Source: Bifidobacteriaceae bacterium
GTDB taxonomy: Bacteria > Actinomycetota > Actinomycetes > Actinomycetales > Bifidobacteriaceae
Assembly (NCBI GenBank): GCA_022650895.1
Contig: JALCQC010000009.1
Span: 477-64,476, forward strand
DNA length: 64,000 bases
Direction: 5' to 3'
Within the stretch, counting starts at the first letter, position 1, and each line of letters opens with the position of its first letter. The notes beneath the pieces are model-generated. The model worked only from the letters and a program-made list of their open reading frames with translations, did not search any database and was not told where the DNA came from. Positions 14,379 to 56,800 of this stretch are shown here, piece by piece. The translations under genes and the position numbers were made by a program.

Positions 14379-16385
14379 TTACCAACTTGAGGTGCCACCG
14401 CCGCCGCCAAAGCCTCCGCCACCAAACGAATCCCCGCCGCCACCGTCACCAGAGCCCTCGGAGTACCAGTTGTCTCTGTGATTCGTATACATGGAACTCG
14501 TCCTGTAAAGCGACGTTGTTTTAAACGTATCGAGGAACTTCTCGCAGGTCACCCAACCAAACGCAAAAGCCATGCTGTAATAGTCAGGAAGCGGTGGCTT
14601 TTCCTTACGACCCCATTTCTTCTGAACATTTTGGCCATCCGCTCTTGCAGCCGCCGAATCAAGACGCTTCTGCAGCCTTTCTTTAGCCATTGTCAGTTGA
14701 GAATCCGGTTTCATCAACCGCACCGCCAACTCGCTAGGACTCGGCGCATTCGGCAGCTCCGCTCGCAGATCATTTAGGTAGTCATAAATCATGCGATGAA
14801 GGCGCAAGCGCTGCTGCGCGGCCAGTCCCCACATGCCGACTGTCATCATGATGGTATAAAAAATCAGCATGAGAGCCGCCACCGCGGAAAGTATGTGCAA
14901 TGGCGCCGCAAGAGGAGTGAACGCCTGCGACAGTACACGCAATATTGTGTCTTTGAAATTTTCTAGCTGCAACAGTTGAAGTGGGCTCAGCTGCTCTGGA
15001 ATCACTATCGATCCAATGATGACGGCAGGAATCCATACCCGAAGAGTGGTCAGCCAACGGAGCAGAAACCAGCAAGTATGAGTGAGAGGACTCATGAGGT
15101 ATGGGCGGACATCGTTGGGATCGGGTTCTTTTCTCAGATGTTTGAAAAAATTTCTCGCCGAGTGCAGAGAAGATTCAGTACCGCCGGTATACCAGTCTTT
15201 GTGCTGGAAGTACATGCTACTGTTCTCAAACTTCTTGATTGGCGGGATTTTAGTCTCTAAAATGCTAGTCTCGCTTGATGGCCTTGTGGTCTTTAAAAAA
15301 GTTTTTGCATCTATCACACCGAACGCAAAATCCATGCTGTAATAGTCGGGCATCGTTGCGACGAAATCAGCCGAATACCTGCCACGAGGATTGATGCGCG
15401 CACGCAAGGTAGCTTTTGCTGCCGCCGCCCTTTCGGGGTGCGTCGCCAACGTCATGGGATCGAGACTGGAATCGATAGCCACGAGGTCACGGACATACTT
15501 TCGTCTCAGATCATCCAAACGCACCTGCCGACGCAGTCGGGCCCCGAGCTGGTACAAACCATACGTTGCAGCAGCGATTATCGCGATCACGACTGCAAGG
15601 ATGTAAATATTCTGAGGCGTATTGAGCCACATCCATACCCAGCGCATCGGGTGGAAGCCCCCTGACGTCTGCCCTGCGGAAACGGCAGTCGTATCGACGA
15701 AGCCAACGCTGCCGGTCGTTATCAGGTTATCAAGCCGTTTGGTTACCAACTTCACGCCGGCGTCGTAGTTATTCTGGCGATAGTCATTTTTGACTGTTTC
15801 GTCCGTCACAAGATCGGTCATGGAGTTGGGAATTTGCCCCTCCATTCCATAGCCGACCTCTAACCGCGCCTGCCGCTGATTCTTCGCAATCAAATAGACG
15901 ACTCCGCTATCCTGGGAAGCATCGCCGACGCCCAACTGGTTCGCCATTCTCAAGGTGAAGGATTCGATGGTGTCTCCCACTGGCACGGAATCAACGGTGA
16001 TCACCATGAGCTGGGGGCGTTTGGGCAGCAGCTTATAATACTCATTCAGCTGATGAATTTCCGTCTTAGTGTCGTCGCTCAATAAGTGCGCGTTATCCGA
16101 AACGAAAATATTGTCAGGATCGATTTTCACAGTGCTATTACCCACAAATGACTGCGCCACAGAGGCAACCATCATCACTATCACCATGATCGCACCAATG
16201 ATGATGATGCCGCGGCAACCGAACCATCCACCGAATTGAAACAAGCGTCTCTTCCACGTCGGTAGCGGCATCGGCGTCGGTATCGATGATCCGCCTATTA
16301 TTCGTATTCGCGAAATCATAAGCTCAGCCCTCTTCATTGCAAGCGATACAAGCAAATGTAGCCTATGGAATGCGCGGGCGGCCAC
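14379..16385 (-). CDS. TPM-domain membrane protein with a duplicated C-terminal module and poly-Gly tail
   Basis: TPM-like block DNAHLLSDDTKTEIHQLNEY...LEVGYGMEG follows an N-terminal TM. C-terminus is GGGGDSFGGGGFGGGGGTSSW. Start uncertain (Met at 16385, 16337 or 16319). Confidence 0.7.
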   Translation of the reverse strand: MAARAFHRLHLLVSLAMKRAELMISRIRIIGGSSIPTPMPLPTWKRRLFQFGGWFGCRGIIIIGAIMVIVMMVASVAQSFVGNSTVKIDPDNIFVSDNAHLLSDDTKTEIHQLNEYYKLLPKRPQLMVITVDSVPVGDTIESFTLRMANQLGVGDASQDSGVVYLIAKNQRQARLEVGYGMEGQIPNSMTDLVTDETVKNDYRQNNYDAGVKLVTKRLDNLITTGSVGFVDTTAVSAGQTSGGFHPMRWVWMWLNTPQNIYILAVVIAIIAAATYGLYQLGARLRRQVRLDDLRRKYVRDLVAIDSSLDPMTLATHPERAAAAKATLRARINPRGRYSADFVATMPDYYSMDFAFGVIDAKTFLKTTRPSSETSILETKIPPIKKFENSSMYFQHKDWYTGGTESSLHSARNFFKHLRKEPDPNDVRPYLMSPLTHTCWFLLRWLTTLRVWIPAVIIGSIVIPEQLSPLQLLQLENFKDTILRVLSQAFTPLAAPLHILSAVAALMLIFYTIMMTVGMWGLAAQQRLRLHRMIYDYLNDLRAELPNAPSPSELAVRLMKPDSQLTMAKERLQKRLDSAAARADGQNVQKKWGRKEKPPLPDYYSMAFAFGWVTCEKFLDTFKTTSLYRTSSMYTNHRDNWYSEGSGDGGGGDSFGGGGFGGGGGTSSW

Positions 16386-16896
16386 TGTAACGTAGACGGT
16401 CCTCAGATGAATCTGCGGAACCTCCCGAGTCTTCTGAGCCTTCGGAACTTACAGAGCCTTGGGCATCACAATAATGAAGGCAATAATTCAGGGGATAAAC
16501 GCTGTTCATCGATGTTCGGAAACTGCCCAGCGCGTATTGCTCCGCTGCGGGTGCGGGAAAACTTAGGATTACGATACCTTCCTAGAAGACTCACGAGTTC
16601 ACCTTATGAATGAGGAGTAATCCTCCGAAGGTTCGAATCTCTCCTTCACCGCTATAGTTTCTCTCCCAACTTGCGGAAAAACTGACTCGGCCTTTGCAAG
16701 TCGAGACGGAGCTGAATGCCGCTGCAGGGCTCCCCGCCCAAGCTCAGTGGTCGTCCTATCACTCTGTACTTTCCGCATACTCGCCTTATATCCTCATCCG
16801 CTTTTAGATTATTGGAACTGTGCAGCCGGAGGAGGCTACGATAGAGGAGCTTTCGGAGTTCTTCTCCAATCACAGCAGCAAAGGAGCTGGGATTAC

Positions 16897-17211
16897 ATGA
16901 AATGTTCATTTTGCAGGTTTAAGAACGCAAAAGGAACTCGCTTCTGTCAGAGATGCGGAAGAGCGCTGAGGGGCCGTCGGTTTCTTTCATCCGCCCAAGG
17001 AGGTGTCATCGCCTCGATGGCCAATCCAGCTCTTGGCCTGGCAACGTTTGTCGGAATGCAGATAGATCAGACGTCGAAAAGTACGATGAGACGACAAAGA
17101 TTGGCGAAAGTATCTCCTCTAGAGGGTGGGCGGTGGTATTGCCCCGACTGTGGCTACCTAAACCGGAAATTTGATATTTATTGCTCGGGTTGCGGTAGAG
17201 AATTCGTCTAA
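16897..17211 (+). CDS. Double zinc-ribbon protein (104 aa)
   Basis: ATG 16897 lies 10 nt after AAGGAG. Motifs CSFC..x11..CQRC at the N-terminus and CPDC..x11..CSGC at the C-terminus. The longer track ORF (16747) has no RBS. Confidence 0.6.
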   Translation: MKCSFCRFKNAKGTRFCQRCGRALRGRRFLSSAQGGVIASMANPALGLATFVGMQIDQTSKSTMRRQRLAKVSPLEGGRWYCPDCGYLNRKFDIYCSGCGREFV

Positions 17212-17239
17212 AATTCACCCCTGCTTGCGCGGGGAAAGC
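17212..17239 (-). repeat. Fossil CRISPR repeat (aattcacccctgcttgcgcggggaaagc)
   Basis: Roughly three quarters of positions match the array repeat, in the same orientation. It starts 1 nt after the zinc-ribbon gene stop. Confidence 0.7.
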
Positions 17240-17357
17240 GTGGCGACAGGAACGACCAGAATCCAGCTATCCCGACCAGAATCAAGGATTTGGGAGGCCA
17301 TACTTTTCAACCAAAGAAAGATTGTGAACCGCATAAGAAACAGATATCTTGAAGGTA

Positions 17358-17507
17358 AGTAGTCGGTGACCTCCCCCGTTACCCTGAAAACCTTTCTGCA
17401 TGAGGCAGGTATTGGGGTGCAGGCCGACGCTGGCAGTGAGTGATAGTAAAACTAGAAGTGCAGGCGCTGTCCGCCCGGTGTTGAACAGGATTCGCACCGG
17501 GCATTTT
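17358..17507 (+). repeat. IR-L: 150-bp left copy of an imperfect inverted repeat; possible ~150-nt sRNA gene
   Basis: Aligns with the reverse complement of 18389-18538. Block identities: 5' 40 nt with 2 mismatches, central 20 nt identical, 3' 46 nt identical. TTGTGA-17 nt-TATCTT ends 7 nt before 17358. Hairpin GCCCGGTG(14 nt)CACCGGGC + ATTTT lies at 17472-17507. Confidence 0.8.
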
Positions 17508-17739
17508 CATGCCTTGGATCGAACCGCTCGCACAGGGAATACGCCACTGAGCCTCACGAACTCACCCACGATTCACGCACCCGAATCACTCGCAGGGAAG
17601 CTGGAAATCTCGTCACATTGCACGGTAGAGGCTAAAATCGAATCGACCTCATGCGAATCAACGCTGATTCCGGGGGAAGAACGCAAAAATGAAAAAAATC
17701 AATTATCCCTCGGGTAGATCTCCAGTTGAGTGTCTATGC

Positions 17740-17828
17740 CGAGTTCGCCCCGGTTACGCTGGGAAAATCAGGAGAGCGAGAACCTTACTATCGAACGCAC
17801 AGATTCATCCCGCTCGTACGAGGAAGAC
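17740..17828 (-). repeat. Two fossil CRISPR repeats about 60 bp apart (17740-17769, 17800-17828)
   Basis: cgagttcgccccggttacgctgggaaaatc and cagattcatcccgctcgtacgaggaagac. Same orientation as the array and array-like spacing. Confidence 0.55.
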
Positions 17829-17871
17829 TGAGCTACTTTACTGAAGCGGCGTCTTATGTCTTCCTAGTTTT

Positions 17872-18120
17872 TCATCTGGCGAGATCGGGATAGGCTTGCT
17901 CAATGAGATCCCTGTTCTCAGGGTCGACAACGGCCAAAGCTTTGAGAATCAAATCTAGGGGTATCTCGTAATCCTGTTGCGGTGCTGCCGTGACGATGGA
18001 GAGTATAGGACCCTCCGGCTCCCCGGCCTTTATCGCTTGATTCAGAACCCATTTGGTTTCCGAATCGAGATATGGGGAAGCAATATCATAGAGCGCCACA
18101 GCAAGCTGCTGTTCATCCAT
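17872..18120 (-). CDS. 82-aa acidic hypothetical protein
   Basis: Internal ATG (complement 18118-18120) lies 6 nt after GAAGGAG. Sequence MDEQQLAVALYDIASPYLDSETKW...DPENRDLIEQAYPDLAR. The longer 154-aa track ORF lacks an RBS and is Cys/Ser-rich. Confidence 0.5.
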   Translation of the reverse strand: MDEQQLAVALYDIASPYLDSETKWVLNQAIKAGEPEGPILSIVTAAPQQDYEIPLDLILKALAVVDPENRDLIEQAYPDLAR

Positions 18121-18388
18121 CGCTGCTCCTTCCCCGGAAGATTGATGGGACGACGCGCAGTGTCTATCCAGTGGCGGTTCTTCCCGATAATCATTTACAC
18201 TTCTACACTCGCTCTGACCTGCTGCCACTTTACGTCGGTACTCGATACAGTTCGTCTCGGATTGTGTAGAGAAACTTTCTCCCGTCGTCTCGATGGACAT
18301 GAGACCATGGCACTTACTCGATCCACAGAGGCTCATCGAGCGAAAAACTGAGAAGATCGAAATTGATTATGCACAGTATGAAGAGTAC

Positions 18389-18538
18389 AAAATGCCCGGT
18401 GCGAATCCTGTTCAACACCGGGCGGACAGCGCCTACGCTCCTAGAATCCACTATTCATCACTGCCAGCGTCGGCCTGCCCCCTTTACCTGCCCCGCGTAG
18501 AAGGGTTTTCAGGGTAACGGGGTAGGTCACCGACTACT
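18389..18538 (-). repeat. IR-R: right copy of the 150-bp inverted repeat; possible convergent sRNA paralogue
   Basis: See IR-L. On the - strand TATTCT (complement 18546-18551) ends 7 nt before the repeat, the same spacing as IR-L. The hairpin and T-run point inward and end at 18389. Confidence 0.8.
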
Positions 18539-18566
18539 CATCTTTAGAATACTCGTATGATCCTTT

Positions 18567-18596
18567 CGGGTTCACCCCCGCTTACGCGGGAAGGAC
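18567..18596 (-). repeat. Fossil CRISPR repeat (cgggttcacccccgcttacgcgggaaggac)
   Basis: Close match to the array repeat with one inserted G. It overlaps the -35 position of the IR-R promoter candidate. Confidence 0.75.
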
Positions 18597-18857
18597 CTCA
18601 CACCCACGACTTACATCAGAAGATGCACAGCACTCACAGCAGATTATGAAAGTTCATGGAAGCCCAGGTCCTTTGTCTGTCACTAATTCTGATGACAGAA
18701 CCCGCCTTGCTTGATATGCGAATATTGTTCACATTGCCTTGTCCGTTTTATAGACGAAGAGAAACAGGATGATAGGTGTAAAATAGCAACCGACACAATG
18801 GCGTTGTCTTCCGATTTCAATAACAAAAATAAGTTTCCAATTGAGTAGGGATCAATT

Positions 18858-19202
18858 ATGATCAAGACACAGAGACGAGCGGCTTATTTCCCATGGGGCG
18901 AGATGCTTTTCACCGGCGGACTCATTGGCATGTGGACGGAATTCAACCAAGCCGATTTCTATCTTCCTGCTCTGATATTCTCGATTCTGTTGGGTCTTGT
19001 TGGACTATTCCTCGCGATGGTACGAACTATTCAACTAAGGCACCGATTTCCCAAACTATGGATTGAACCTCTCTGGTTCTGTTCACTTATCCTTGTGGGG
19101 AGTCTTTTAGAACACCAAGCTTTCTGGGCGTATGTTGCAGTGATTCTTGCCGCCACCGGATACGCTTTGAGAATTCACTTCCTTATGCAAGAGGCTCACT
19201 AA
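18858..19202 (+). CDS. Small membrane protein (114 aa, 3-4 TM), unknown function
   Basis: Hydrophobic helices LFTGGLIGMW, LPALIFSILLGLVGLFLAMV, LWFCSLILVGSLL and AYVAVILAATGYAL. Preceded by a visibly AT-rich region and GAGTAGGGA. Confidence 0.55.
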   Translation: MIKTQRRAAYFPWGEMLFTGGLIGMWTEFNQADFYLPALIFSILLGLVGLFLAMVRTIQLRHRFPKLWIEPLWFCSLILVGSLLEHQAFWAYVAVILAATGYALRIHFLMQEAH

Positions 19203-19305
19203 CCTCCGAGCTCACCTTTCAGATTCTAGCTAGGTATAGTTAGCTCAACCTTGAGATTCCAAGCACGGTTTATCGCGCCTGCCACTAATTCCCGATTGTG
19301 CACAG

Positions 19306-19455
19306 CCTTGAGGATGCATTTGCGCGGGGAGGACAGCGTACCTACACTTTTATTCGTAGAAACCACAGGTTTCACCCCGCTTGCGCGGGGAAACTCGGAC
19401 ACCGTCGTCCTGGATACTGCCGACAGTGTTCCACCCCCGCTTACTCGGGGAAGAG
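19306..19455 (-). repeat. Fossil mini-array: three degenerate repeats starting at 19306, 19367 and 19427 (61/60-bp phase)
   Basis: The first unit keeps only the 3' half (catttgcgcggggaggac). The other two are aggtttcaccccgcttgcgcggggaaac and tgttccacccccgcttactcggggaagag. The two intervening 32-nt segments are spacer-sized. Confidence 0.8.
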
Positions 19456-19468
19456 AGAGAAGATAGAA

Positions 19469-19759
19469 ATGGATGAACTTCTTCGTGTGAAAGCGAACCT
19501 CAAGCGCGGGGCAGAATACGTGGGTGGACATTTAACGGTGAGGACGGATGGACTTTACTTTCACCCGCATCAGTTTAATATCCAGATCGCTGATCTGTTC
19601 ATCAACAAGGCCGAGATTCGCGAAATCAAGAAGATCAGGACGCTGGGTCTAGTGCCTAATGGTCTGCAGCTTGCGCTGCTGAATGGCGGAGTCGTGACAC
19701 TAGTTGTGTCAAGCCGCGCCAAGTTGATGCAGACGATTGAAGACGCATATCAGCTCTGA
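19469..19759 (+). CDS. 96-aa PH/GRAM-like small protein
   Basis: ATG 19469 is preceded by a purine-rich GAAGAGAGAGAAG. GGHLTVRTDGLYFHP...GLQLALLNGGVVTLVV fits a bacterial PH/GRAM-like pattern (from memory). The track ORF start at 19298 reads through the fossil repeats and I reject it. Confidence 0.5.
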   Translation: MDELLRVKANLKRGAEYVGGHLTVRTDGLYFHPHQFNIQIADLFINKAEIREIKKIRTLGLVPNGLQLALLNGGVVTLVVSSRAKLMQTIEDAYQL

Positions 19760-19798
19760 GAACGGTTACAGAATAAGTGTTTGGCTTCTAATGCATCG

Positions 19799-19993
19799 CT
19801 ATATTTCAAGTACAGCTTTCAAACGAATCTTAGGGTTCGATATTCTTTTGTGTTTTTTAGCATAGTGATTCAGAAGTTGAGCACGACTTTCATTGAATGC
19901 TCAGGTCGTCATGGTGATGATATGAAGCCGATCGGCGATGATCCTTGCGTTGGAAAACCGTTCTAACGATGTCTTGATAATAACTATTAAGGT
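19799..19993 (-). pseudogene. ISL3-family transposase relic (~65 codons, in-frame stop)
   Basis: - strand translation: TLIVIIKTSLERFSNARIIADRLHIITMTT*AFNESRAQLLNHYAKKHKRISNPKIRLKAVLEI*. FxNAxI(I/V)xDRFH is the conserved ISL3 DDE-region motif (from memory). Confidence 0.4.
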
Positions 19994-20035
19994 TTAAAGT
20001 CACGGCTTTGTGTTTGTGGCAATAGTGGTTGAGCC

Positions 20036-20185
20036 AGGTTCACCCCACTGACGCGGAAAGACTCGCCCCCACGTCGGCTCTGAATGTGAGGGAAAGGCTT
20101 TACCCCTGCTCGTGCGAGGAAACAGTTGCGCACGCGCCAATCGTCCTCCGTACGCTAGCTCACCCCTACTTGTGCGGGAAAAACG
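20036..20185 (-). repeat. Three degenerate trailer repeats (starts 20036, 20096, 20157) still in ~61-bp phase
   Basis: aggttcaccccactgacgcggaaagac, ggctttacccctgctcgtgcgaggaaac and agctcacccctacttgtgcgggaaaaac. Confidence 0.8.
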
Positions 20186-20351
20186 TTTACGAAACCGGGT
20201 TACGACCGGTTCCCTTGATCTCTTTTTGGTAACCCACCAAATCTGATACTGTGAATACAGGTCAGAGATCCCACGCGACCAGCCATAGGACTGGAACATC
20301 AGTCGGGGGGTTATCTCTGGCCCTTACTTTTTAGAGAAATCTCTCTGAACT

Positions 20352-22882
20352 CGGTCCACCCCCGCTTGCGTGGGGAAGACACGATGTTGAGAAGCTCATT
20401 CCAACCGCTGTTCGGTTCACCCCCGCTTGCGCGGGGAAGACGCCTACGCGTGGTCGATGCCTCAGTACGCGTTCGGTTCACCCCCGCTTGCGCGGGGAAG
20501 ACTCTATCTCCCATCCCCAGTATCTGCCTCCCGCCGGTTCACCCCCGCTTGCGCGGGGAAGACCTAGACAACCTGGGCACCGCCTTCGCGCACCCCGGTT
20601 CACCCCCGCTTGCGCGGGGAAGACACGACGGGCGAGTTCGCCCGTCTCTGCCGGTACGGTTCACCCCCCGCTTGCGCGGGGAAGACCTTTCATAAGTGCT
20701 CATCGTTCATTCCTTTCACGGTTCACCCCCGCTTGCGCGGGGAAGACATGACCTGTGTGATGGCGATGCATTTCTCGTTCGGTTCACCCCCGCTTGCGCG
20801 GGGAAGACAAACCGTTAGTGGAATTAGTCTGAAATATAGTCGGTTCACCCCCGCTTGCGCGGGGAAGACTGAGTCAATCAGGATAATCTTACCTAGCAGT
20901 AAGGTTCACCCCCGCTTGCGCGGGGAAGACCCGACTTTGCCGAGGAACTGCGTGACCTGCGGCGGTTCACCCCCGCTTGCGCGGGGAAGACAACGATCGC
21001 GGTGCCACTCTCGGCTATGGGCCTGGTTCACCCCCACTTGCGCGGGGAAGACCCGCAGATTGCGGCTATCACGATTGGATTGCGCGGTTCACCCCCGCTT
21101 GCGCGGGGAAGACCTTCACCGTGCCCGATCTTGCCCGCGCCGCCGCGGTTCACCCCCGCTTGCGCGGGGAAGGCAAATGAGTCTACGCGAATACGATACC
21201 TATGCTCGGTTCACCCCCGCTTGCGCGGGGAAGGCGGCTATCCCCTGTCATATTTCGTGCCCCCGCAAGGTTCACCCCCGCTTGCGCGGGGAAGGCACGC
21301 CACCAAGGGTGGGCACTTCGCGGATACCCGGTTCACCCCCGCTTGCGCGGGGAAGGCCCGGTATCGCGTGCGTGACCTCTCATCGTCCGCGGTTCACCCC
21401 CGCTTGCGCGGGGAAGGCGGACTTCACCACGTAGACGCGTTGACTCCATTCGGTTCACCCCCGTCTGCGCGGGGAAGGCCTCACTATCGCGGGACGAGAT
21501 TGAGTCACTGGCGGTTCACCCCCGTCTGCGCGGGGAAGGCGGAGCTGACGGCTCCCGTCAGGGTTTTTGACGCGGTTCACCCCCGTCTGCGCGGGGAAGG
21601 CTCTACGAGCTGTTTCCAGGATTCGGAAATGTCCGGTTCACCCCCGTCTGCGCGGGGAAGGCTGACCGATGTGCGAGAAGACCGACGCTCACGCCGGTTC
21701 ACCCCCGTCTGCGCGGGGAAGGCTTCCACCGCAGCGGATGATTCGGGTTGTCGAATGGTTCACCCCCGTCTGCGCGGGGAAGGCCCGCAGGAGGGTCGGA
21801 AATAATTTACTGGGCTTGGTTCACCCCCGTCTGCGCGGGGAAGGCCAGACCGGCCGGCCAGTGTGCCAGTTCGGTCGAGGTTCACCCCCGTCTGCGCGGG
21901 GAAGGCACCACACCCGGCCCGAAGCTTGTCCATGGTTTGGGTTCACCCCCGTCTGCGCGGGGAAGGCTGCCCTGAGTATCGCGGCGCGTTTCTAATCCAG
22001 GGTTCACCCCCGTCTGCGCGGGGAAGGCTCCGACGGCCTCCGCGCTGCAGGTCAGGAGGCGGGTTCACCCCCGTCTGCGCGGGGAAGGCTCCGTGAGTTG
22101 AGGGTCGAGAGCGGCATTCCGGGGTTCACCCCCGTCTGCGCGGGGAAGGCAGAACCGTGTCGTCGAACAATTGGAGCGTGAAAGGTTCACCCCCGTCTGC
22201 GCGGGGAAGGCGGGGAGCGTGAGGACACGTGGCTTGATACCACGGGTTCACCCCCGTCTGCGCGGGGAAGGCGCCCGGTGCGGGGTTTCTCTTTACCAAA
22301 CCCGAGGTTCACCCCCGTCTGCGCGGGGAAGGCGTAGGGATGGGATGATGTGGGTCCCTAACCTGCGGTTCACCCCCGTCTGCGCGGGGAAGGCCTTCGA
22401 AGCAGCTCACTGGCAATGCTGGCACGTGGTTCACCCCCGTCTGCGCGGGGAAGGCAAGCCGTTGAGCGCGGCGATTGTACGCCAGTTGGGTTCACCCCCG
22501 TCTGCGCGGGGAAGGCCCACGAAAGCCGGCCTGACCGGCGGCAGTGCGCGGTTCACCCCCGTCTGCGCGGGGAAGGCTCCTCCCACGAAGATGATTGCTT
22601 TCAACCACCAGGTTCACCCCCGTCTGCGCGGGGAAGGCAATGGTTTAGTGCCCGGCGACCTCTGGTTCCAGGGTTCACCCCCGTCTGCGCGGGGAAGGCG
22701 TTCGATGCCGTTTCCGTTGTCGCCGCGTATGGGGTTCACCCCCGTCTGCGCGGGGAAGGCCCACGCTCCGAACGCTCACAGGCAGTACGCATGGGTTCAC
22801 CCCCGTCTGCGCGGGGAAGGCTACGGGCCGTATCAGGGTGGTGACGAGCTGGAGGGTTCACCCCCGTCTGCGCGGGGAAGGC
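20352..22882 (-). CRISPR. Type I-E-like CRISPR array: 42 repeats, 41 spacers, 61-bp period
   Basis: The reverse-complement repeat GTCTTCCCCGCGCAAGCGGGGGTGAACCG matches the I-E architecture (compare E. coli GAGTTCCCCGCGCCAGCGGGGATAAACCG). Repeat starts run 20352, 20413 ... 22854. Spacers are 32 nt (33 if the variable 29th repeat base is counted with the spacer). One repeat at 20657 carries an extra C. The degenerate terminal repeat is at the low-coordinate end. Confidence 0.97.
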
Positions 22883-23100
22883 AGTGGCACTTTATGCGGA
22901 AAACCGCACCTGCGTCCACCCAAAAAATTGGATTCGTGCAGTGCTATCTGTCATAGGACCTTTCAAACACGTCACCCTCCACCATCCACATCTACGATAC
23001 CGTGAAACTTCGTCCAAAAGGGCAAGCGGGCGGGCCAACCGGGCCACATCATCGATACGAGCAAGGTTCGCCGGCCCCGCCCGTTCGGACATGGGTATTA
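22883..23100 (-). promoter_or_regulatory. Presumed CRISPR leader
   Basis: It abuts the perfectly conserved, newest-type repeat, is AT-richer than its surroundings, and has no credible ORF. I could not pin down a promoter. Confidence 0.35.
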
Positions 23101-23849
23101 TCCGCGTTTACTACGTGATTTTCACACGAATGCTCACGCTGTACTCCACGACGGACGTCAAGCGTTCGGTTGTGCGGCAAGATTCAGAATGCTGCCCGTG
23201 AAACGGGCTTGGACATGTGGGCAGAATGCCGAATCCGAGGCGTTCTCCACAGATGTTGCCGCATAACCGCGCGTTTGACGACACGAGATGCCAATTCCAG
23301 CAAATTTCACCCTGCCAGGTTGGCGTGGAACAACGAATGTGATGCCTGGGAGGGTCGCCAGTCAGGATCGCGACGAGTTGCCACACGGGCGAACTGCCTA
23401 AGCTCCAAAACGGCGAACCCGTCTGCCATCAAACTGACGCACGAGCCACCCACTAACCGACGCCAACGGTCAGGTGCAGCAGCGGTGCCCACCACCACAA
23501 AGTGCACACCGAACCCAACCACACCAAGCCGACGAGGCACCAAGAAGATACCAGGCAACCGCGCAGCCCACCATCAGCCGCCCACCACCAACCACATACC
23601 ATCAGTCACACGCCACCGGCAAAGATATCAATTTCATAACAAATCAGCATCGCGATTGTTATATATGGTGATGCCCGAAAACAGCACAAGATCAACGCTC
23701 CTAGAGCTTGGCACAGCGGTCCCACCGTCCCGCAGCAGCGTCGACCACCACCCCCGATCGGCAAGTGGCCACCGCCGAGCGCCGTATTCTTCAAATGCAA
23801 TATTGGTTCCTCGACGACGAGGAGCAGGCATTCAAAGAAGGTAGTCTTC

Positions 23850-25841
23850 ATGGAAAAAATGAAAACCGGCAGACTCAGCGTCTGCCTTTCTGCGGCGTTG
23901 GTGCTCGCCTCCCTTGCCGCGCCCACGGTGGCCTCCGCTGCACCTACTACGCCCACTGATTCCTCGACGATCAGCGCGGACGTGATGAAACAGATCTACG
24001 ACGAGGTCAAAACCCCTTACGATTATGGCATCGTCCTTCCAAAGGGAGATCAGCCGGCTGATTTCGACAGCGAACTCACCGATCAGATGAACGTCTTCAA
24101 GATCCCGGGAGACAACGATTACGTGTACACCACGTACGTCGGTAAGGACATCAACCGCAAGACCGACGGAACCGATAACACCGGCTACAGCACCGGTCTG
24201 GCGCGCAGCAAGGACATGGTCACGTGGGAGAAGCTCGGCAAGATCCTCAGCCCCGACAAGGATTTCTACAGTGCATCCACCGCGGGCTACCTGGTGAAGA
24301 ACCACACGTGGGGTGATCTGCCGACGCCTCATCTGACGGCAGACGGCAAATACGCCCTCACGGTTCTGTCCACCAACGAGCACGGCTATGAGCAGGGCGA
24401 CAAGCGCGGCGGAGTGGCCTTCTCCCCCAGCAACTCCTTCTTCAACGAAGATGGCAGTGTCGCCGAGTTCACCATGTATGACAAGCCCATTCTCGATGGC
24501 AGCGCCTCCTACGAGAGCGGCACCATCTGGGCCGTCAAGACCATCTGGGACGAAGAGAACCAGCGTTATGTGGCGTTCTACAACGCCTCGCACGGTCCGG
24601 AAGTCATGAACCAAGCGTATTCGACGGACCTCATCCACTGGACCCGCGAAGCCAACAATCCCGTGCTGCAGACGGTGACCCAGCCCAACGGCGAGCAGTG
24701 GGGACAGCTGTACAACGGCGACGCGGACGTCGTCAAGATCGGCGACTACTGGGTGATGTTCTACTTCACTGACACCCCCGTCAAGATCGGCAACAAGATC
24801 AAGCCCAACAACGTGATCGATTCCTTCGCCGTCTCCAAGGACATGGTGCACTGGACGAAGAGCGACTACAAGCTGACCGCCAAGAACTCCACCTTCGCCA
24901 AGTCCTACGCCCACAAGCCGGCCGTCGTGAAGAAGAACGGCGTGGTCTATCACTATTACAACGCCGTCAGCAACCAGGACCGCAACATGGCGCTGTCGAC
25001 CTCCGTCGATCTTTCTCCCATCAAGGAAGCCAAGCACGTCCTTGAGAACAGCAATGACGCGCTCCTGTCCAACCTCCTCACCAAGGCGCAGAAGGAACTC
25101 ATCAAGGATGGCGGCTCCCTCAAGGAAGTCACCGCGGCACTGTCCGCGATCCGCATGCACCTCCATCCCGAAGCTGATGCAAGCCTGCGTTCCGCAACGC
25201 TCACTTACGAGAAGGATGGATCGACGCAGCAGCTCGGCCTCAAGGCCTCCGGCACCACCTACTCGGCAACCCTGCCAAGCAGCGCCTCCAAGGTGCGCCT
25301 CTATGCGGCCCCGGTCGCCTCGAGCGCAGCCGTCACCACTGCTGACGGTACGGAAATCACCAACGCGGGTATCGGGCTTTCCTTCGACGCCGCTAAGGGA
25401 ATCTCCCCGCTGAAACTGACGGTGACGTCCGCCGACGGCACCACGAAGAAGGGCTACACCGTCAAGGTCGCCAGCGATGCCAAGAACGCGGGAACCAGCA
25501 ACGGAAACTCTGCGGCAGGTCCGGGAGCAAACACGAATGGCTCCCCCTCCGCCACCCCGGCCAAGGACTCGAACAACGACTCCAGCACCGCAGCGGCCAC
25601 CGCAGACAACGGCAAGAAGAAGGCAGCAGCGCAATCCTCCGCGGCAGCCAAGAAAGCCGCAGCCGCTAAGGCAGCGAAGGCAGCATCAAAGGAAGCCGGG
25701 GCCACTGAGGCCACAGCTGGCGAGAACGCCTCCAGCCTCGCACACACGGGCAGCTCGGTGGTCTTCGTGCTGATTGCCGCAGCGATCCTCGTGGCAGGTG
25801 GCGCAGCGCTCCTCCTCAAGGCACGCAAGCAGCGGAACTAA
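23850..25841 (+). CDS. Cell-wall-anchored (LAxTG) beta-propeller glycoside-hydrolase-like protein (GH43/GH32-clan-like) with a cadherin-like beta-sandwich and Ala/Lys-rich stalk
   Basis: Signal peptide, repeated blade motifs (SKDMVTWEKLG, STDLIHWTRE, SKDMVHWTKS) and C-terminal LAHTG + TM + KARKQRN. The GH family is uncertain. Confidence 0.7.
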   Translation: MEKMKTGRLSVCLSAALVLASLAAPTVASAAPTTPTDSSTISADVMKQIYDEVKTPYDYGIVLPKGDQPADFDSELTDQMNVFKIPGDNDYVYTTYVGKDINRKTDGTDNTGYSTGLARSKDMVTWEKLGKILSPDKDFYSASTAGYLVKNHTWGDLPTPHLTADGKYALTVLSTNEHGYEQGDKRGGVAFSPSNSFFNEDGSVAEFTMYDKPILDGSASYESGTIWAVKTIWDEENQRYVAFYNASHGPEVMNQAYSTDLIHWTREANNPVLQTVTQPNGEQWGQLYNGDADVVKIGDYWVMFYFTDTPVKIGNKIKPNNVIDSFAVSKDMVHWTKSDYKLTAKNSTFAKSYAHKPAVVKKNGVVYHYYNAVSNQDRNMALSTSVDLSPIKEAKHVLENSNDALLSNLLTKAQKELIKDGGSLKEVTAALSAIRMHLHPEADASLRSATLTYEKDGSTQQLGLKASGTTYSATLPSSASKVRLYAAPVASSAAVTTADGTEITNAGIGLSFDAAKGISPLKLTVTSADGTTKKGYTVKVASDAKNAGTSNGNSAAGPGANTNGSPSATPAKDSNNDSSTAAATADNGKKKAAAQSSAAAKKAAAAKAAKAASKEAGATEATAGENASSLAHTGSSVVFVLIAAAILVAGGAALLLKARKQRN

Positions 25842-50872: not shown

Positions 50873-53800
50873 TCAGGCCTTGTGTTTGCCCGAACCTCGG
50901 CGCATACCAGTGCCGCTAAACCGCTGCGACAGCAGGATTCCCGCGAACAACAGGACCGATGCACCCAAAACCAGCCACACGATGGAAACACCCGTGCTCG
51001 GCAATTGCGTTGACGGTGCTGACGGCGTCGGCAGCAATTGCGAAGGCACCGAAGGTGGAATTGACGGTACGGGTGGCAACAGCTTGAAGTAATTGGTGAT
51101 GGTGACGTTGTTGTCGTCAGCACCGTCAATCACGACAACGCCTGATGCCGGATCGGTGGAGGTTAAGTCAGCACCCGCAGCATCGGTTTCCTTCACCGAG
51201 CACCGCGCACCTACGAGAAGGTTGTCAATGGAGGCCCGATAACCGTTGCTACCGCTCAATATCACCTTGCCATTATTCGGCAATGGAAGGGCGGCCTCGG
51301 CATCACCATGACCTATGGCGCACGCCACCAGCACTTCAAACGGTCCGGCACCCCTTTGCTTGGCACCCGGTCCCACGCGCTTCTTGATGATGGTGAGAGT
51401 CCCTACGTCGTAGCGGTTTGCGACTGTCACCACCTCAACCTTGACGGGCCCCTCGGCGTCACCGTCAGAGGAAGGGACCATCTGGATGGTGGCGGCGGTG
51501 TCCGAGTTCTGGTCCACGTTGTTTCCGAGGAAGGCCGTGGAGTTGGCCCCACCGGCGTCAGTTTCCTCCAAGTGGCATGTCGAGTTCGCAGGAATACCGG
51601 AGAACCTCCTCTGTGCATCTGCTGCGAGCGTGAATTCTCCGCTTGCGCCAAGACCCACATTCACCGGTCGGTTATCGGAGGTCGTGCAGGCGAGTGCAAA
51701 GGTGAAGGGGCCGAATTTTCCGCCGGTAGCTGTGGTGTCCACTGTTTTTTTGACGACCAGAGCCGTGGACTTGTAGACGTTGACAAGGGCAACTGTCGAT
51801 GCCTCCGTCGGGTGCGCCACCAGAGTACCGTCATCGGCAGTAGTGTCGCTGTTGTCAACAATGACGCTGGTGGGATCGCCCTCGCGAGACGTCTCGCCAA
51901 ACGCGCCTATCGCGCCATCCTCCTTCACTTCGCACGACGCCCCGTACGAAATACCTGAGACTACCACCGGCTTGTACGTGCCGTCCTTCTGTTTGAGAAG
52001 CTTAAGAAGCTTGCTCTTCTCACCACCAAAGGTCACCGTAGTATTGCGACCATCAGAACCCCGAACAACACAGGCCATAGTTGCGGTGACGCTGTCGGGA
52101 GACGAGTCCGCAGCATCGCCTTCTACATTCTTTGTCACTGTGACGGAACCCTTTGCCAACCGCACCCCTACCTTATTGGGCGCGATGGTACGAGGAGACT
52201 GGGTCTTTCCACTGCTGTCTTTGCCTCGGTACAACAGGCCGTATTGGTTCCAGATGTACTGGTTGTCCTCATCGACCTCGACCGAAGCGCCCTCAACGTT
52301 GGAATCCGTTTTGGGCCAATTCGTGGTGGAATACGTGATGTCCACTGATTTTCCGGGCTTCAGAGACTTCGCACCCGAGGTCGTGAAATCTACGGTGACA
52401 CGGAGGCCGCGAACCGCCGACCAGTCAACGCTGGAGGTATTGTCCACCGTCGTCCACCCCGACGTCCCACAGGGAAGATAGTCCTCACTGGGGTTACTGG
52501 TCCACATGCCGACGCATGCGTTCTTCTCTTTGGAGATCTCGTAACGCACCGATGAGCCTTCGGGCGCACCCACTACCTTCGGAAGTTCCTTCAGCTGCGG
52601 ACGGTACTGCGAACCGCGGTTATCGCCCTTCACCAACATCGTGTCACCAACCGCAGGAAGCTGGTCGAAGAACGTCATCGACTCGTATTCGCTCGTCCCC
52701 GCATTCACGGCGTGCAGACTCCACTGATCGGTGCCGCCGACGTTGCTGTTGGCCACGCAAGGAGAGCGGTAGTACGTGGTACCGTCCGCTCCGGTATAGG
52801 TGGAGTTGGCGCAGTCCATGGACTTCGCCGCCGGATTGATGGCACCGCTCAACGCTCCACGGACGCCCTTGATGACATACAGGTTTTCCCCACCGCGCGG
52901 CTGCACATAATCTGACGTCTTTGCGCCGTTGTTTCCGACAGCCGTCACGGAATTGTTGCCGTCTCCAGGCACCGCGTCACCGGGAGCGCTTGCCAGCTTC
53001 TGCTTCGTTGTGACCGTGACATCATTGACGGCTTTCTGCGTCGAGGTGATGCCCGGCTGCAGTTCCATCCACACGCGAAGCTTCACGGTTTCCCCGGGAC
53101 TCAGGCGATTTTTGCCGTTCTCCCACGAGAAGACGAGTTTCCCACCATTGCTGCTGGCTGCCAGCTTCGGCTGTGCCTGCAACGTTCCACCGGTGCCTTC
53201 TTGGGGAAGGAAGCGGTATCCGGGGTGATCCGCCGGGCCGGAACCGAGGCCGGTGTAGTGGAGGAACTCCCCCGGCTCATCGGTCACGGTATCGATATCA
53301 AGGTAACCGGTGCCTGTGTTCTTGATGGTGATGTCCCAAGGGACCAGTGTTCCGGCATCGACAAGACGGTCACAGGTAGTGCCACTCACATACTGCGCGC
53401 ACTTGTCGATGGCGAGACGTGCCTCACCAGGGCTCCAACGAACCGTGTCAGAGGCTGTTTTGGTATCGGATTTATCGAGGATTCCCTCACTGCGTACGGC
53501 GAGCACGTTGGTTGCCTTCGCCCCGTCCACATACTTGACCGGAGCACTGCCCCCGCGCTGCGTGGAGCGCAATTCGACGGTGTACTCAACCTTCGTATTC
53601 CACCCGGGAACATTCCACTTTTGGAAGGTCTGGGCGGCGTTTGAACTCTGTCCTTCCTTCAGGAATTCGACTTTCAGACCGGCGACATCGGCAAGTGCCA
53701 CACCGTCTGGCAAGCGGTAAGAGCTACCGTCCCGAGCTTTCTCCTGCAGCGCTCCCTCTTTCCATGTTCCATTTACATAGGCGGATAGGCGGAGATGGTC

Positions 53801-56800
53801 GGCTCCGTCCGGGAAGGTGACCTTGGGGAGGCTCGTCATGTTGAAATTCGTCCAAAAGTCCGTGGAATGTGCGGAATCCCCTGCTTTTCCAGCACCATCA
53901 GGCTCATCGGTCATGGTCACGGTGCGGGGAGAAAGAGTTGATGCCCCCTGATTCGCTCTCAACGTGACGGTTTTCGACTTATTGTCTGCCGGCTCCATGA
54001 TGACTGAGTCATCGGAGATGTCCTTGTCGGGCTTCACGTCGATGACGCCGCTGTTGAACGTGACGACGGAGTGATCGAAGTCGTATGGAGGCTTATCGGG
54101 CTCCTCCGAGACCACCGGAATGGTCGTGTTGTAGGACTGTGCGAAAGCCGTGTTCTTCGAGTCTTCATTGCCCGTTGGAACAAATGCCGCACCCGAGTCC
54201 CTCAAGGTGGATCGAACTTGGGTTGAAAGATCAACCATCAGTTTCGTTCCGTTTGGAATCGTTCCACCCTTGACATCGGAATCCTGGAAGGTGACCGAAA
54301 CACCAACCACATCGGCCAGTGCCTCCTTCGTCATGGAATTCGCCGCACTTGCCTTCAGGTTCGTGGAGGTGAAGGTCCGTGCCGAGGAATTGTAATGCAG
54401 AAGCCACACAGTACTGGCCGCAAGATTCACTCCTGTAGCGGTGTGAACGTCAATACCCGTGATGTTCTGCCGGTTAAAGGGATTCCCTGTACCGAGAGTT
54501 TCGTAGCCGGCAAATGGATTCGCCGTCGCACCGGCTTCCGTCTGCTCGCTCGTGCAGGAACCTTCGATGACGTCGTTTTCTCCAGAACAGGGAGCGGGAT
54601 CCGTCACACGCACATGCGTTGCAGGAGTCAGCGACCTCTGCATTGCCGTCAATGTGTATTTCAACGTGGGATACCCGGAATCCTCAACGGTGCCTGCAGC
54701 AGGAACCAGAATGCTGCTCGTGTCTGCGCCATCATTGAGCGAATTCGTCACCGTGGTGCTCTTCTTTATTGACACATAAGGCGGATTGTCGTAAACGTTG
54801 ACCGTGTCACAGCCGCTCTCACGGCCCGCGGGCTTCGCCTGAATCACCGCGCAGTTCTCGATGACACCCTTATCCTCTGTGTTGTACTTCATGTTTTGCG
54901 AAACATAGGTGTGTGGGGCCGAACGCAAGGTGGCACGCGGCTCCCACTCCAAAGTGAAGGTTCTCGGAGCCTTGCCGCTCGCCGCCTGAACACCTTCTCC
55001 AGAGCGTGGAGCGGTGGCGTCGAAGGCTTTGTTGGGAGTGCCATCCGGGTTGAGATAGTCGGCGGCTGCGTCACGCGCCTCCGTGTTCTCACCCAGAATG
55101 ATGCGTACGCCTGTTGCCTTTTGCTGCTCCCCGGCAGAAAGCGTGTAGCCGATGAAACTGCCGTCGCGACTCTGCCATGTGGTGTTTGCGGAACTCCGGG
55201 CAGCGGCATGCCATGCGCCCTCATAGTAAAGCTCAACTGCTTTTACCACGTCGTACTTGATGGAGGGGAGAGAATTTGAGGCCGCGATCGGAGCGATGCC
55301 CGTGAGATTGAAGGCATCGAAAGCCGTGGCTTGCGTATCTGCCGCATCGTCAGCGGGATCGCTGATGGTGATCTCCGAATTCCCCCAACCAGTCGTCCAC
55401 TTAAGCGTGGTGAGCACATGGTTGGAAGATCGCGAGGCGATCGCGTCCATCGACCACTCCTTGTTCAGAGTCAGATGCGCGCTGACGGAATGAGTGGGGT
55501 AGACGATGATTCCAGTGCTTGCCTCAGCGGTCGAGCAAGGAATCTGTAATCCTTCATGAGTGCTGGAGCCACAGGCTGCGACTTTGTTCGTATAGACCGT
55601 CTGGCGCTGCTCGTTGACAGGGACACCTTTGGCATCATTGTCAACGGCATCGGTCGGAATAGAGGAGTCTGTACGCGTCGTGGAACGCGACGTGAAAACT
55701 AGCTGAGGCTGAGGCTGGAGGCTTGCCGCAAAGCCGTCGGCATCGCCATAGACGAACTGGATGCCTGTGACGTCTTTGGGGGTTGTCCCCGGTTTCGCAG
55801 AGGTCAGCGCCGCCGTTAATCCCTCCGAGTCGAAGCCAAGAGTGGTTGTTCCTGCTGTGGCCTTCTTGCTCCCGATCGCAAAGTACGGGCTCTGTGCTGT
55901 CTTGACAAGAATCGTCAGCGTGGAACCAGCAACAATCTGCGTGGGTTCTATTGACGTGAGGTTGAACCCATTCCAGAAATCCTTGTCATTACTGGAATCC
56001 TGCTCATCGGTAACGGTCAGCTGTGTTGGCTTTACGTTGCCGGTTGCCGAACTGATCTGTGGGTTGAGCGCCACAACTGCGCTCTGCCCAGGACGGAGGT
56101 TCCTCGAAGGAGTCACCGTCTTTCTCACACTGATATCGACGCGGGGTTTGACGATGGTGAGGTTGTCGGAACTTTTGCCGCAGGCCTGATTCACGTTGGC
56201 GGCAGTTACACAGAGAGACGCCGTGTTCTTTTTCTGCTCGGTATTCGCAGTCATGGCATCTTCGGAAGTACCGATCTTCATCTCCACCGCAGTGGTGGCA
56301 TTCTGAGGAATGGAGTCCCCCTCCCCCATGAAGGTGAGGGTGAAGGACGAGATATATTCGTCCTTCGCAAGCTGTGGGAGTGCGGGCAACGCGCCATCAT
56401 CGAAAGGTACTTCCACCTTTCTTTCAGAGTCTGCAGTCGCGATGACATACGTTACAGCAGCGCTTTTCACACCTGTCTTCTGCTCTCCCACCGTGGGGTA
56501 GGAAATTCCGTACGTGAAGCCGTCAAAGATGAGGAGAGAGCCGTCAAAAAAACCGCTGGGGTCTTCGACGGTGAACTTGTTCACCGCTTCACCGGTATTG
56601 GTGGCAACGATCGTCGCAGTAGTCGACTCTCCGGCCGGCAGTGAGCTGTCGGCTATGTTTTTCGACACTGTGGCAGAGATCGCCCTCGGCGTGACGCGGT
56701 AGCTTGCTGTGGAATAGCGTGGCGCACTGGGTGGCACTCCTGCTTTTTCAGCGCGTACCTGAGCGTTGTTGGTCGCCGTGTACTTGTTTTTCGAGAGATC

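Follow-up and report, generated by a model that had tools for sequence, protein, structure and literature searches.

Inverted copies of a putative structured module in the decayed trailer of a type I-E CRISPR array from a Bifidobacteriaceae bacterium

CRISPR arrays of type I-E have repeats of 28-29 nucleotides (nt) with a CCCCGC...GCGGGG hairpin, spacers of ~32-33 nt and a link to cse1-cse2-cas7-cas5-cas6e. In characterised type I-E systems Cas6e cuts at the repeat, 3' of the hairpin, and leaves a 5' handle. We analysed a stretch of 64,000 nt from an uncultured Bifidobacteriaceae bacterium (assembly GCA_022650895.1, contig JALCQC010000009.1, positions 477-64,476; hereafter the window), in which the decayed trailer of such an array contains two inverted copies of a sequence of ~185 bp each (17324-17507 on the plus strand and 18389-18575 on the minus strand). 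The copies face inward and flank a cassette with a small protein gene.

Comparison with described systems revealed partial likeness to several of them. Like an intrinsic terminator at the end of an array or gene, each copy ends in a GC-rich hairpin of 12 pairs with a T-run, the first such site downstream; unlike a plain terminator, which has no need of it, ~115 nt of conserved structured upstream sequence is duplicated as well, and the T-run is only 4 nt long. With genes of bacterial trans-acting small RNAs (sRNAs) the copies share their size, non-coding nature, three-hairpin layout and terminator end, but they differ in their unconvincing promoters, in the absence of a homologue or Rfam family and in the attachment of the unit to a repeat-derived handle part. 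A third comparison is with the CRISPR RNA (crRNA)-like regulators of the CreA/CreR type, the trans-activating crRNAs (tracrRNAs) or small CRISPR/Cas-associated RNAs (scaRNAs) and solitary repeat units. The copies would likewise start with a repeat-derived handle near a degenerate repeat, but a second degenerate repeat is missing, the 33-nt sequence in spacer position has no seed match in the window, cas genes are not found nearby and complementarity to the repeat stays at shuffle level. A regulator of the CreTA/CreA type, marked by a spacer between two degenerate repeats and by a PAM-flanked partial (seed) match to a nearby promoter, was rejected on the single degenerate repeat and on the lack of a 14-nt seed match (positions 6 and 12 free) of any trailer spacer in the window. 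A tracrRNA-like molecule, marked by an anti-repeat, was rejected as well: the energies of its duplexes with the two repeat variants fall among those of dinucleotide shuffles, of which a fraction of 0.05-0.42 did at least as well. Invertons and elements like miniature inverted-repeat transposable elements (MITEs) also have inverted arms around a small cassette, but their arms measure 10-40 bp rather than ~185 bp, and we found no invertase or transposase, target-site duplication or dispersed copies.

We favour, tentatively and with a probability of about 40%, an old local inverted duplication of the 3'-terminal module of the array transcript, from handle to terminator, which would have been kept by constraint on the RNA or on the terminator. 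A single non-coding module of ~185 bp would have been copied, with the right copy as the original and the left copy as derived, since only the right copy carries a whole repeat and the left has GTGAACC alone, after unrelated sequence. The right copy would be the 3'-terminal piece of the array transcript, ending at the first strong hairpin with a T-run past the array; its parts would follow in the order predicted Cas6e cut, GUGAACC handle, 30-nt linker, structured RNA of ~150 nt with three helices, and intrinsic terminator. The left copy would have been taken over with an exact start at the handle and an exact end after the T-run, and now lies on the opposite strand, downstream of an open reading frame (ORF) for a zinc-ribbon protein. 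Facing inward, each copy would stop transcription entering the cassette with its gene for a protein of 82 amino acids (aa). The parts of the locus are:

17324-17330, plus strand: GTGAACC, with which the left copy begins on its outer side, the repeat part 3' of the hairpin (5'-handle part), with no repeat hairpin ahead
17331-17357, plus strand: left linker, 27 nt, poorly conserved (~50% against the 30 nt of the right copy), containing the -10-like TATCTT (17345-17350)
17358-17431, plus strand: domain 1 of the left copy, a long irregular hairpin with a variable apex, whose 5' block AGTAGTCGG... pairs with ...CCGACGCT
17432-17471, plus strand: domain 2 of the left copy, a stem GGCAGTG/CGCTGTC around a variable loop
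17473-17507, plus strand: left terminator-like hairpin, 12 pairs, ~-19 kcal/mol, then ATTTT
17508-18388, no strand: enclosed segment, 881 bp, the left part of which is old array
18389-18423, minus strand: right terminator-like hairpin, ~-18 kcal/mol, then ATTTT
18425-18538, minus strand: domains 1 (18538-18466) and 2 (18465-18425) of the right copy
18539-18568, minus strand: right linker, 30 nt, in spacer position after a degenerate repeat, containing TATTCT (18546-18551)
18569-18596, minus strand: degenerate repeat with 3/28 mismatches; the right copy lies directly 3' of it on the crRNA strand

A repeat search resolved the copies into three collinear arm pairs (17345-17417/18479-18551, 17415-17447/18450-18482 and 17452-17507/18389-18444), which together span 17345-17507 and 18389-18551. 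Alignment of the 150-nt cores (17358-17507 and the reverse complement of 18389-18538) with MAFFT and RNAalifold showed differences in 19 of 151 columns. These differences are clustered: two fall into the first 40 nt, the central 21 nt and the 3' 46 nt are identical, and the identical runs between the cores measure 46, 21, 19 and 15 nt. The conserved blocks carry 1 difference in 102 nt, the three variable patches of the core are ~31-43% divergent, and the clustering exceeds random placement (P ~0.003-0.01, where P ~0.003 is the chance that the summed three longest identical runs reach the observed value). In the window each conserved block has exactly two occurrences, against none in 100 shuffles, and neither a covariance model built from both copies nor a pattern search detected a third copy in the window.

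Outside the cores the homology reaches further outward at ~50% identity, up to a GTGAACC present in both (17324-17330; reverse complement of 18569-18575), with which the CRISPR repeat ends on its 3' side; the outer ends of the copies read TGTGAACC. On the inner side it stops at most 5 nt past the terminator stem in both copies, and beyond these limits, 5' of GTGAACC and 3' of ATTTT, the two copies are unrelated in sequence. An initial annotation of this DNA had described the block pattern of the inverted repeat, the hexamers TATCTT, TTGTGA (17322-17327) and TATTCT (minus strand), the hairpin GCCCGGTG(14 nt)CACCGGGC followed by ATTTT, and the inward orientation of both copies, each ending in a strong hairpin and a T-run; all of these were recovered at the positions it gave. 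The inverted repeat is real. It looks selectively maintained, and any function is putative.

The same annotation had placed the pair in a decayed CRISPR trailer, and we found decaying repeats on both sides of the copies and within the enclosed segment. Two features delimit this region:

20353-22882, minus strand: intact type I-E array of 42 repeats with a period of 61; the leader lies above 22882
17212-17239, minus strand: outermost fossil CRISPR repeat, 5/28 mismatches, adjoining the zinc-ribbon ORF at its stop codon

The reverse complement of the array repeat, GTCTTCCCCGCGCAAGCGGGGGTGAACC, is the type I-E form. At three other loci (L017, L021 and L025) arrays with repeats that differ by 1-4 nt are found just downstream of cas3-cse1-cse2-cas7-cas5-cas6e-cas1-cas2, on the same strand. 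Because of the repeat form and the orientation of these cas operons we take the minus strand as the crRNA strand of the window. The repeat hairpin, the period and the near-identical arrays beside complete I-E operons assign the array to type I-E. Domain scans of ORFs detected no cas genes across the 64 kb, though the repeats nearest the leader show no variation at all; either the array is an orphan, or the cas operon that serves it lies in another part of the genome.

Repeat decay runs toward lower coordinates. Degenerate repeats were found at 20157, 20097, 19428, 19368, 18569 and 17212, with weaker ones at ~20035, 17801, 17741, 17653 and 17515. The enclosed segment had been said to carry two fossil repeats, and these were confirmed, in the + form, at ~17741-17768 and ~17801-17828, 60 nt apart; together with the weaker ones at ~17515 and ~17653 they are oriented like the repeats of the main array. 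The fossil repeats near the copies are 11-32% off the consensus. The degenerate repeat ahead of the right copy (18596-18569) is still foldable, with its stem kept through a U-G pair and its loop changed from GCAA to GUAA, both of which are GNRA loops.

Folding of the aligned copies revealed the same three-domain fold in both, with 45 RNAalifold consensus pairs kept in each copy and one compensatory change from U-A to C-G. The domains are an irregular hairpin of 74 nt closed by AGUAGUCGG/CCGACGCU, a hairpin closed by GGCAGUG/CGCUGUC, and the terminator. The conserved blocks correspond to the strands of the basal helices and to the terminator, the variable patches are apical, and the differences avoid columns that are paired in the minimum-energy fold of the respective copy (P ~0.013-0.02). 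The linker is ~50% divergent, and the drift of patches and linker is about that of two copies each decaying like the nearby fossil repeats. Measured against the 11-32% decay of these neighbouring repeats, the patches appear neutral and the blocks under constraint. The helix blocks stayed nearly identical while the apical patches and the linker drifted, from which we infer that the structure of the RNA or of the terminator is under selection in both copies. The unit is non-coding, with every sense frame closed. A conserved antisense protein was considered and rejected: an ORF of 42 codons is open in both copies but frameshifted between two 1-nt indels. These antisense frames (17383-17507 on the minus strand and 18392-18517 on the plus strand) read MPGANPVQHRADSA...FSG, with the same start and stop and a frameshifted middle.

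To find terminator-like sites we looked for hairpins of at most -9 kcal/mol whose end lies no more than 3 nt from a stretch of 4 or more T. On the crRNA strand, from the array down to 17213, this gave the right hairpin (-18.2 kcal/mol, followed by A and TTTT) and no other site, and the left hairpin (-19.0 kcal/mol, also followed by A and TTTT) is the first such site on the plus strand past the zinc-ribbon ORF (16747-17211). Each hairpin is the first terminator-like site for transcription that enters the cassette from its own side. Given its place on the crRNA strand just past a repeat, the right copy could do without its own promoter, provided that array transcription extends to it; for the left copy, transcription would come either by read-through from the zinc-ribbon ORF or from a weak promoter.

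The initial annotation had read the copies as convergent RNA genes of ~150 nt. In its full form this would make each copy an autonomous sRNA gene that has its own terminator and a sigma-70-type promoter of its own, with the -10 hexamer seven nt before AGTAG; the pair would be convergent paralogues acting in trans. Both copies indeed have a TAnnnT hexamer at a distance of 7 nt from their conserved start, the terminator hairpins face inward, the common fold has its variable nucleotides at the apices, and the left copy, which has no upstream repeat hairpin, needs other means of production. The promoters did not hold up: the left candidate (TTGTGA, 17 nt, TATCTT) matches the sigma-70 consensus at 8/12 positions and the best right candidate at 7/12, so that neither reaches the 9/12 matches, with -35 and -10 hexamers 16-18 nt apart, that we required, and neither was listed by the promoter scan. 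Even sites with 9/12 matches occur 3.6 times per shuffled 4.1 kb. There is no TG extension, a 3-nt indel shifts the -35/-10 spacing and spoils it in the right copy, and the -10-bearing linker is the least conserved part of the unit (~50% identity). Autonomous genes would also leave the conservation of GTGAACC outside the promoter core unexplained, and neither an Rfam match nor a homologue was obtained. We consider such sRNA genes unlikely; what stood of the claim is the inward orientation, the shared fold and the hairpin with its T-run, and what did not is the promoters, which are at shuffle level.

Homologues in relatives had been suggested as a check, and none were found in any collection searched. 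Rfam 15 gave no match at gathering thresholds in the whole window (families including HEARO/IscB omega-RNA, tracrRNA, 6S, riboswitches and group II intron), and at E <=10 only two chance matches in 17200-18700. A blastn search of unit and cassette against phages and plasmids revealed no homologue, and neither did three exact-pattern scans of viral contigs. A gapped-pattern scan of GTDB genomes gave a single chance match, in coding DNA of Myxococcota, and a 19-mer scan of metagenome contigs only 11 chance matches; both scans demand exact matches of 19-25 nt, and homologues below ~90% identity would escape them. The unit is absent from ten other I-E arrays with similar repeats (L017-L026, found via a spurious ORF translated across the array), as searched with blastn and a covariance model (R1), and a covariance-model search found it absent from the locus of a related genome. 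The lineage is barely sampled. Contig JALCPL010000026.1 of assembly GCA_022650385.1 is 100% identical over 16000-24000, and the three assemblies that carry the region are identical.

Several points weigh against a duplicated transcript end under constraint. No homologue turned up in any collection searched that would speak for conservation beyond this genome. The T-run comprises just 4 T, and both hairpins fall outside a stricter terminator scan, which is limited to loops of 8 nt or less and needs at least 5 T in 8. The right copy lies 1.8 kb past the last intact repeat, and array transcription may not extend that far. The stability of the fold is no better than that of dinucleotide shuffles (z = -1.43 for both copies), and the structure statistics, which come from two sequences only, related by descent, are weak and partly circular. 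The perfect identity over 46 nt, loop included, exceeds what RNA function usually demands, and gene conversion could explain it.

The unremarkable fold stability, the perfect identity of blocks even in the terminator loop and the restriction of the unit to this genome in all searches would also fit a functionless inverted duplication, whose identical blocks arose by patchy gene conversion or by protection of stems from mutation and whose patches are faster-mutating loops or unconverted sequence. The copies lie 0.9 kb apart, which suits intramolecular conversion, and their surroundings are a patchwork of decaying array and inserted pieces. We regard a duplication of this neutral kind as unlikely, if slightly less so than the sRNA genes. 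Conversion would have to cover blocks of 21-46 nt yet skip patches of 23-26 nt three times, the differences avoid paired positions, and both boundaries match predicted RNA ends, not arbitrary points. The blocks would be either constrained or repeatedly homogenised by conversion that skips the patches, and constraint appears to be more likely.

The same boundaries bear on another variant of the duplication, in which the left copy would be a DNA copy of RNA, made by reverse transcription of the processed 3'-terminal CRISPR transcript and inserted inverted 0.9 kb away. It is suggested by the ends of the left copy, one of which matches the site where Cas6e is predicted to cut (G|GTGAACC) and the other the U-tract that follows the terminator, and we hold it to be highly improbable. 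If the boundaries do reflect RNA ends, they would offer one of the few hints that bacteria can duplicate sequences by way of RNA. In a milder form of this reading, both copies would encode a new handle-bearing, CRISPR-derived structured RNA under selection. Such a functional RNA would consist of a crRNA handle, a scaffold of 150 nt and its own terminator, present in two copies, and would bear on the recycling of decaying arrays into non-coding genes or transcription insulators. At present the locus is a single-lineage oddity, which indicates that an old CRISPR trailer can harbour genes as well as structured duplications, and that the limits of a duplication can be set by hairpins derived from the array.

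The cassette between the copies contains one gene:

17872-18120, minus strand: gene for an acidic, all-helical protein of 82 aa, with a GGAG ribosome-binding site

That this ORF is a real gene, as the annotation had supposed, is borne out by its only relative, a homologue with 88% identical aa in a related genome (L004 10001-10249, in L004/L005), which lies between a GH3 gene and unrelated genes. The shared sequence is limited to 17869-18150, that is the 82-aa gene and ~30 nt upstream, and the arms are absent there. The gene is, judging by this distribution, separate from the arms, as if it had moved as a promoterless cassette. The protein forms an orphan family among 1.8 billion representatives; its predicted model has five helices and is confident, with no fold match in the PDB. 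Scans of NCBIfam and PADLOC revealed no match for the 82-aa protein, nor did a Pfam scan for the enclosing ORF of 154 aa. Residues 42-68 match a stretch that is repeated up to 15 times in large proteins (P0243). A foreign origin of the cassette was tested by composition and rejected, as no anomaly was seen.

Inverted arms around a small gene, and the presence of this gene at an unrelated site in the related genome, are what recombination or transposition sites would give: the 0.88-kb segment could invert through RecA or a site-specific invertase, or the 1.25 kb could be a non-autonomous element with long terminal inverted repeats. The outer ends TGTGAACC loosely resemble the TGT ends of Tn7-type elements. 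The related genome, on the other hand, shares the gene alone and no arms, no target-site duplication can be read at 17324/18575 or 17345/18551, and no recombinase or transposase was predicted among the scanned ORFs of at least 200 aa (all but one of 2339 aa). The window search gave two copies only, both local. The fossil repeats inside the segment are oriented like those outside, which implies that the present orientation is ancestral, and the three identical assemblies show no other. Both forms had been named in the initial annotation, and there is no direct evidence for either; we consider them very unlikely. A MITE or an element derived from an insertion sequence was likewise rejected for want of a target-site duplication and with two local copies only within the window. 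A Logan contig of 941 nt ends 30 nt inside each arm, as expected of any k=31 graph.

Further candidates for the origin of the unit were tried and rejected. The 33-mer in spacer position has no phage match that would mark it as a phage-derived spacer. For a derivation of the unit from three decayed repeat-spacer units, the best repeat-like matches reach 12-15/28 (hand count), which is under a scan threshold that already gives chance hits.

The repeats of the intact array fall into three block-wise variants, whose endings, read from the trailer toward the leader, are GCTTGCGCGGGGAAGAC, GCTTGCGCGGGGAAGGC and GTCTGCGCGGGGAAGGC. The GCTTGCGCGGGGAAGGC block comprises five units (21147-21418) and the GTCTGCGCGGGGAAGGC block 24 units adjoining the leader, and the blocks look like a stepwise record of repeat mutations that spread from the leader end. 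The array unit at 20659 has a 1-nt insertion. A terminator-like hairpin is found in the leader (22900-22945 on the minus strand, -14.3 kcal/mol, then TTTT), ~20 nt upstream of the first repeat, an odd position if the array promoter sits further upstream. Between the fossil repeats of the trailer there are two AT-rich islands (18600-18900 and 19700-20000; 37-43% GC against 55% for the window), one of which adjoins a hydrophobic ORF of 114 aa (18858-19202); the islands look like insertions into the old array.

Two of the related arrays have neighbours of their own. The first (L018 1-3500) is an I-E-type array of 57 repeats, with a repeat 1 nt off that of the window, followed by cas2 alone, deoxynucleoside kinase genes and many small ORFs; its cas operon may be degraded, or the array may be on a mobile element. 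The second (L020 1-11000) lies next to a set like that of a cyclic-oligonucleotide-based antiphage signalling system (CBASS), with SAVED, SMODS and E1/E2-like proteins, a phage integrase and an IS481 transposase, and looks like a defence island.

The neighbours in the window are sugar-utilisation genes, ABC and MFS transporters, a TetR regulator and a TPM-domain protein. The zinc-ribbon ORF (16747-17211, plus strand) encodes 154 aa with a double zinc-ribbon (Pfam DZR, E = 4e-8); it ends one base before the outermost fossil repeat and is missing from the called genes of the NCBI contig. The nearest relatives of the TPM-domain membrane protein (14379-16385, minus strand) show just 40% identity (one cluster labelled as a metagenome-assembled genome of Lactobacillus sp.), followed by Enterococcus faecalis with 29%, and no orthologue above 40% identity was found. 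This gene was either acquired horizontally or belongs to a very poorly sampled lineage. The ORF of 2339 aa lies at 50873-57892 on the minus strand.

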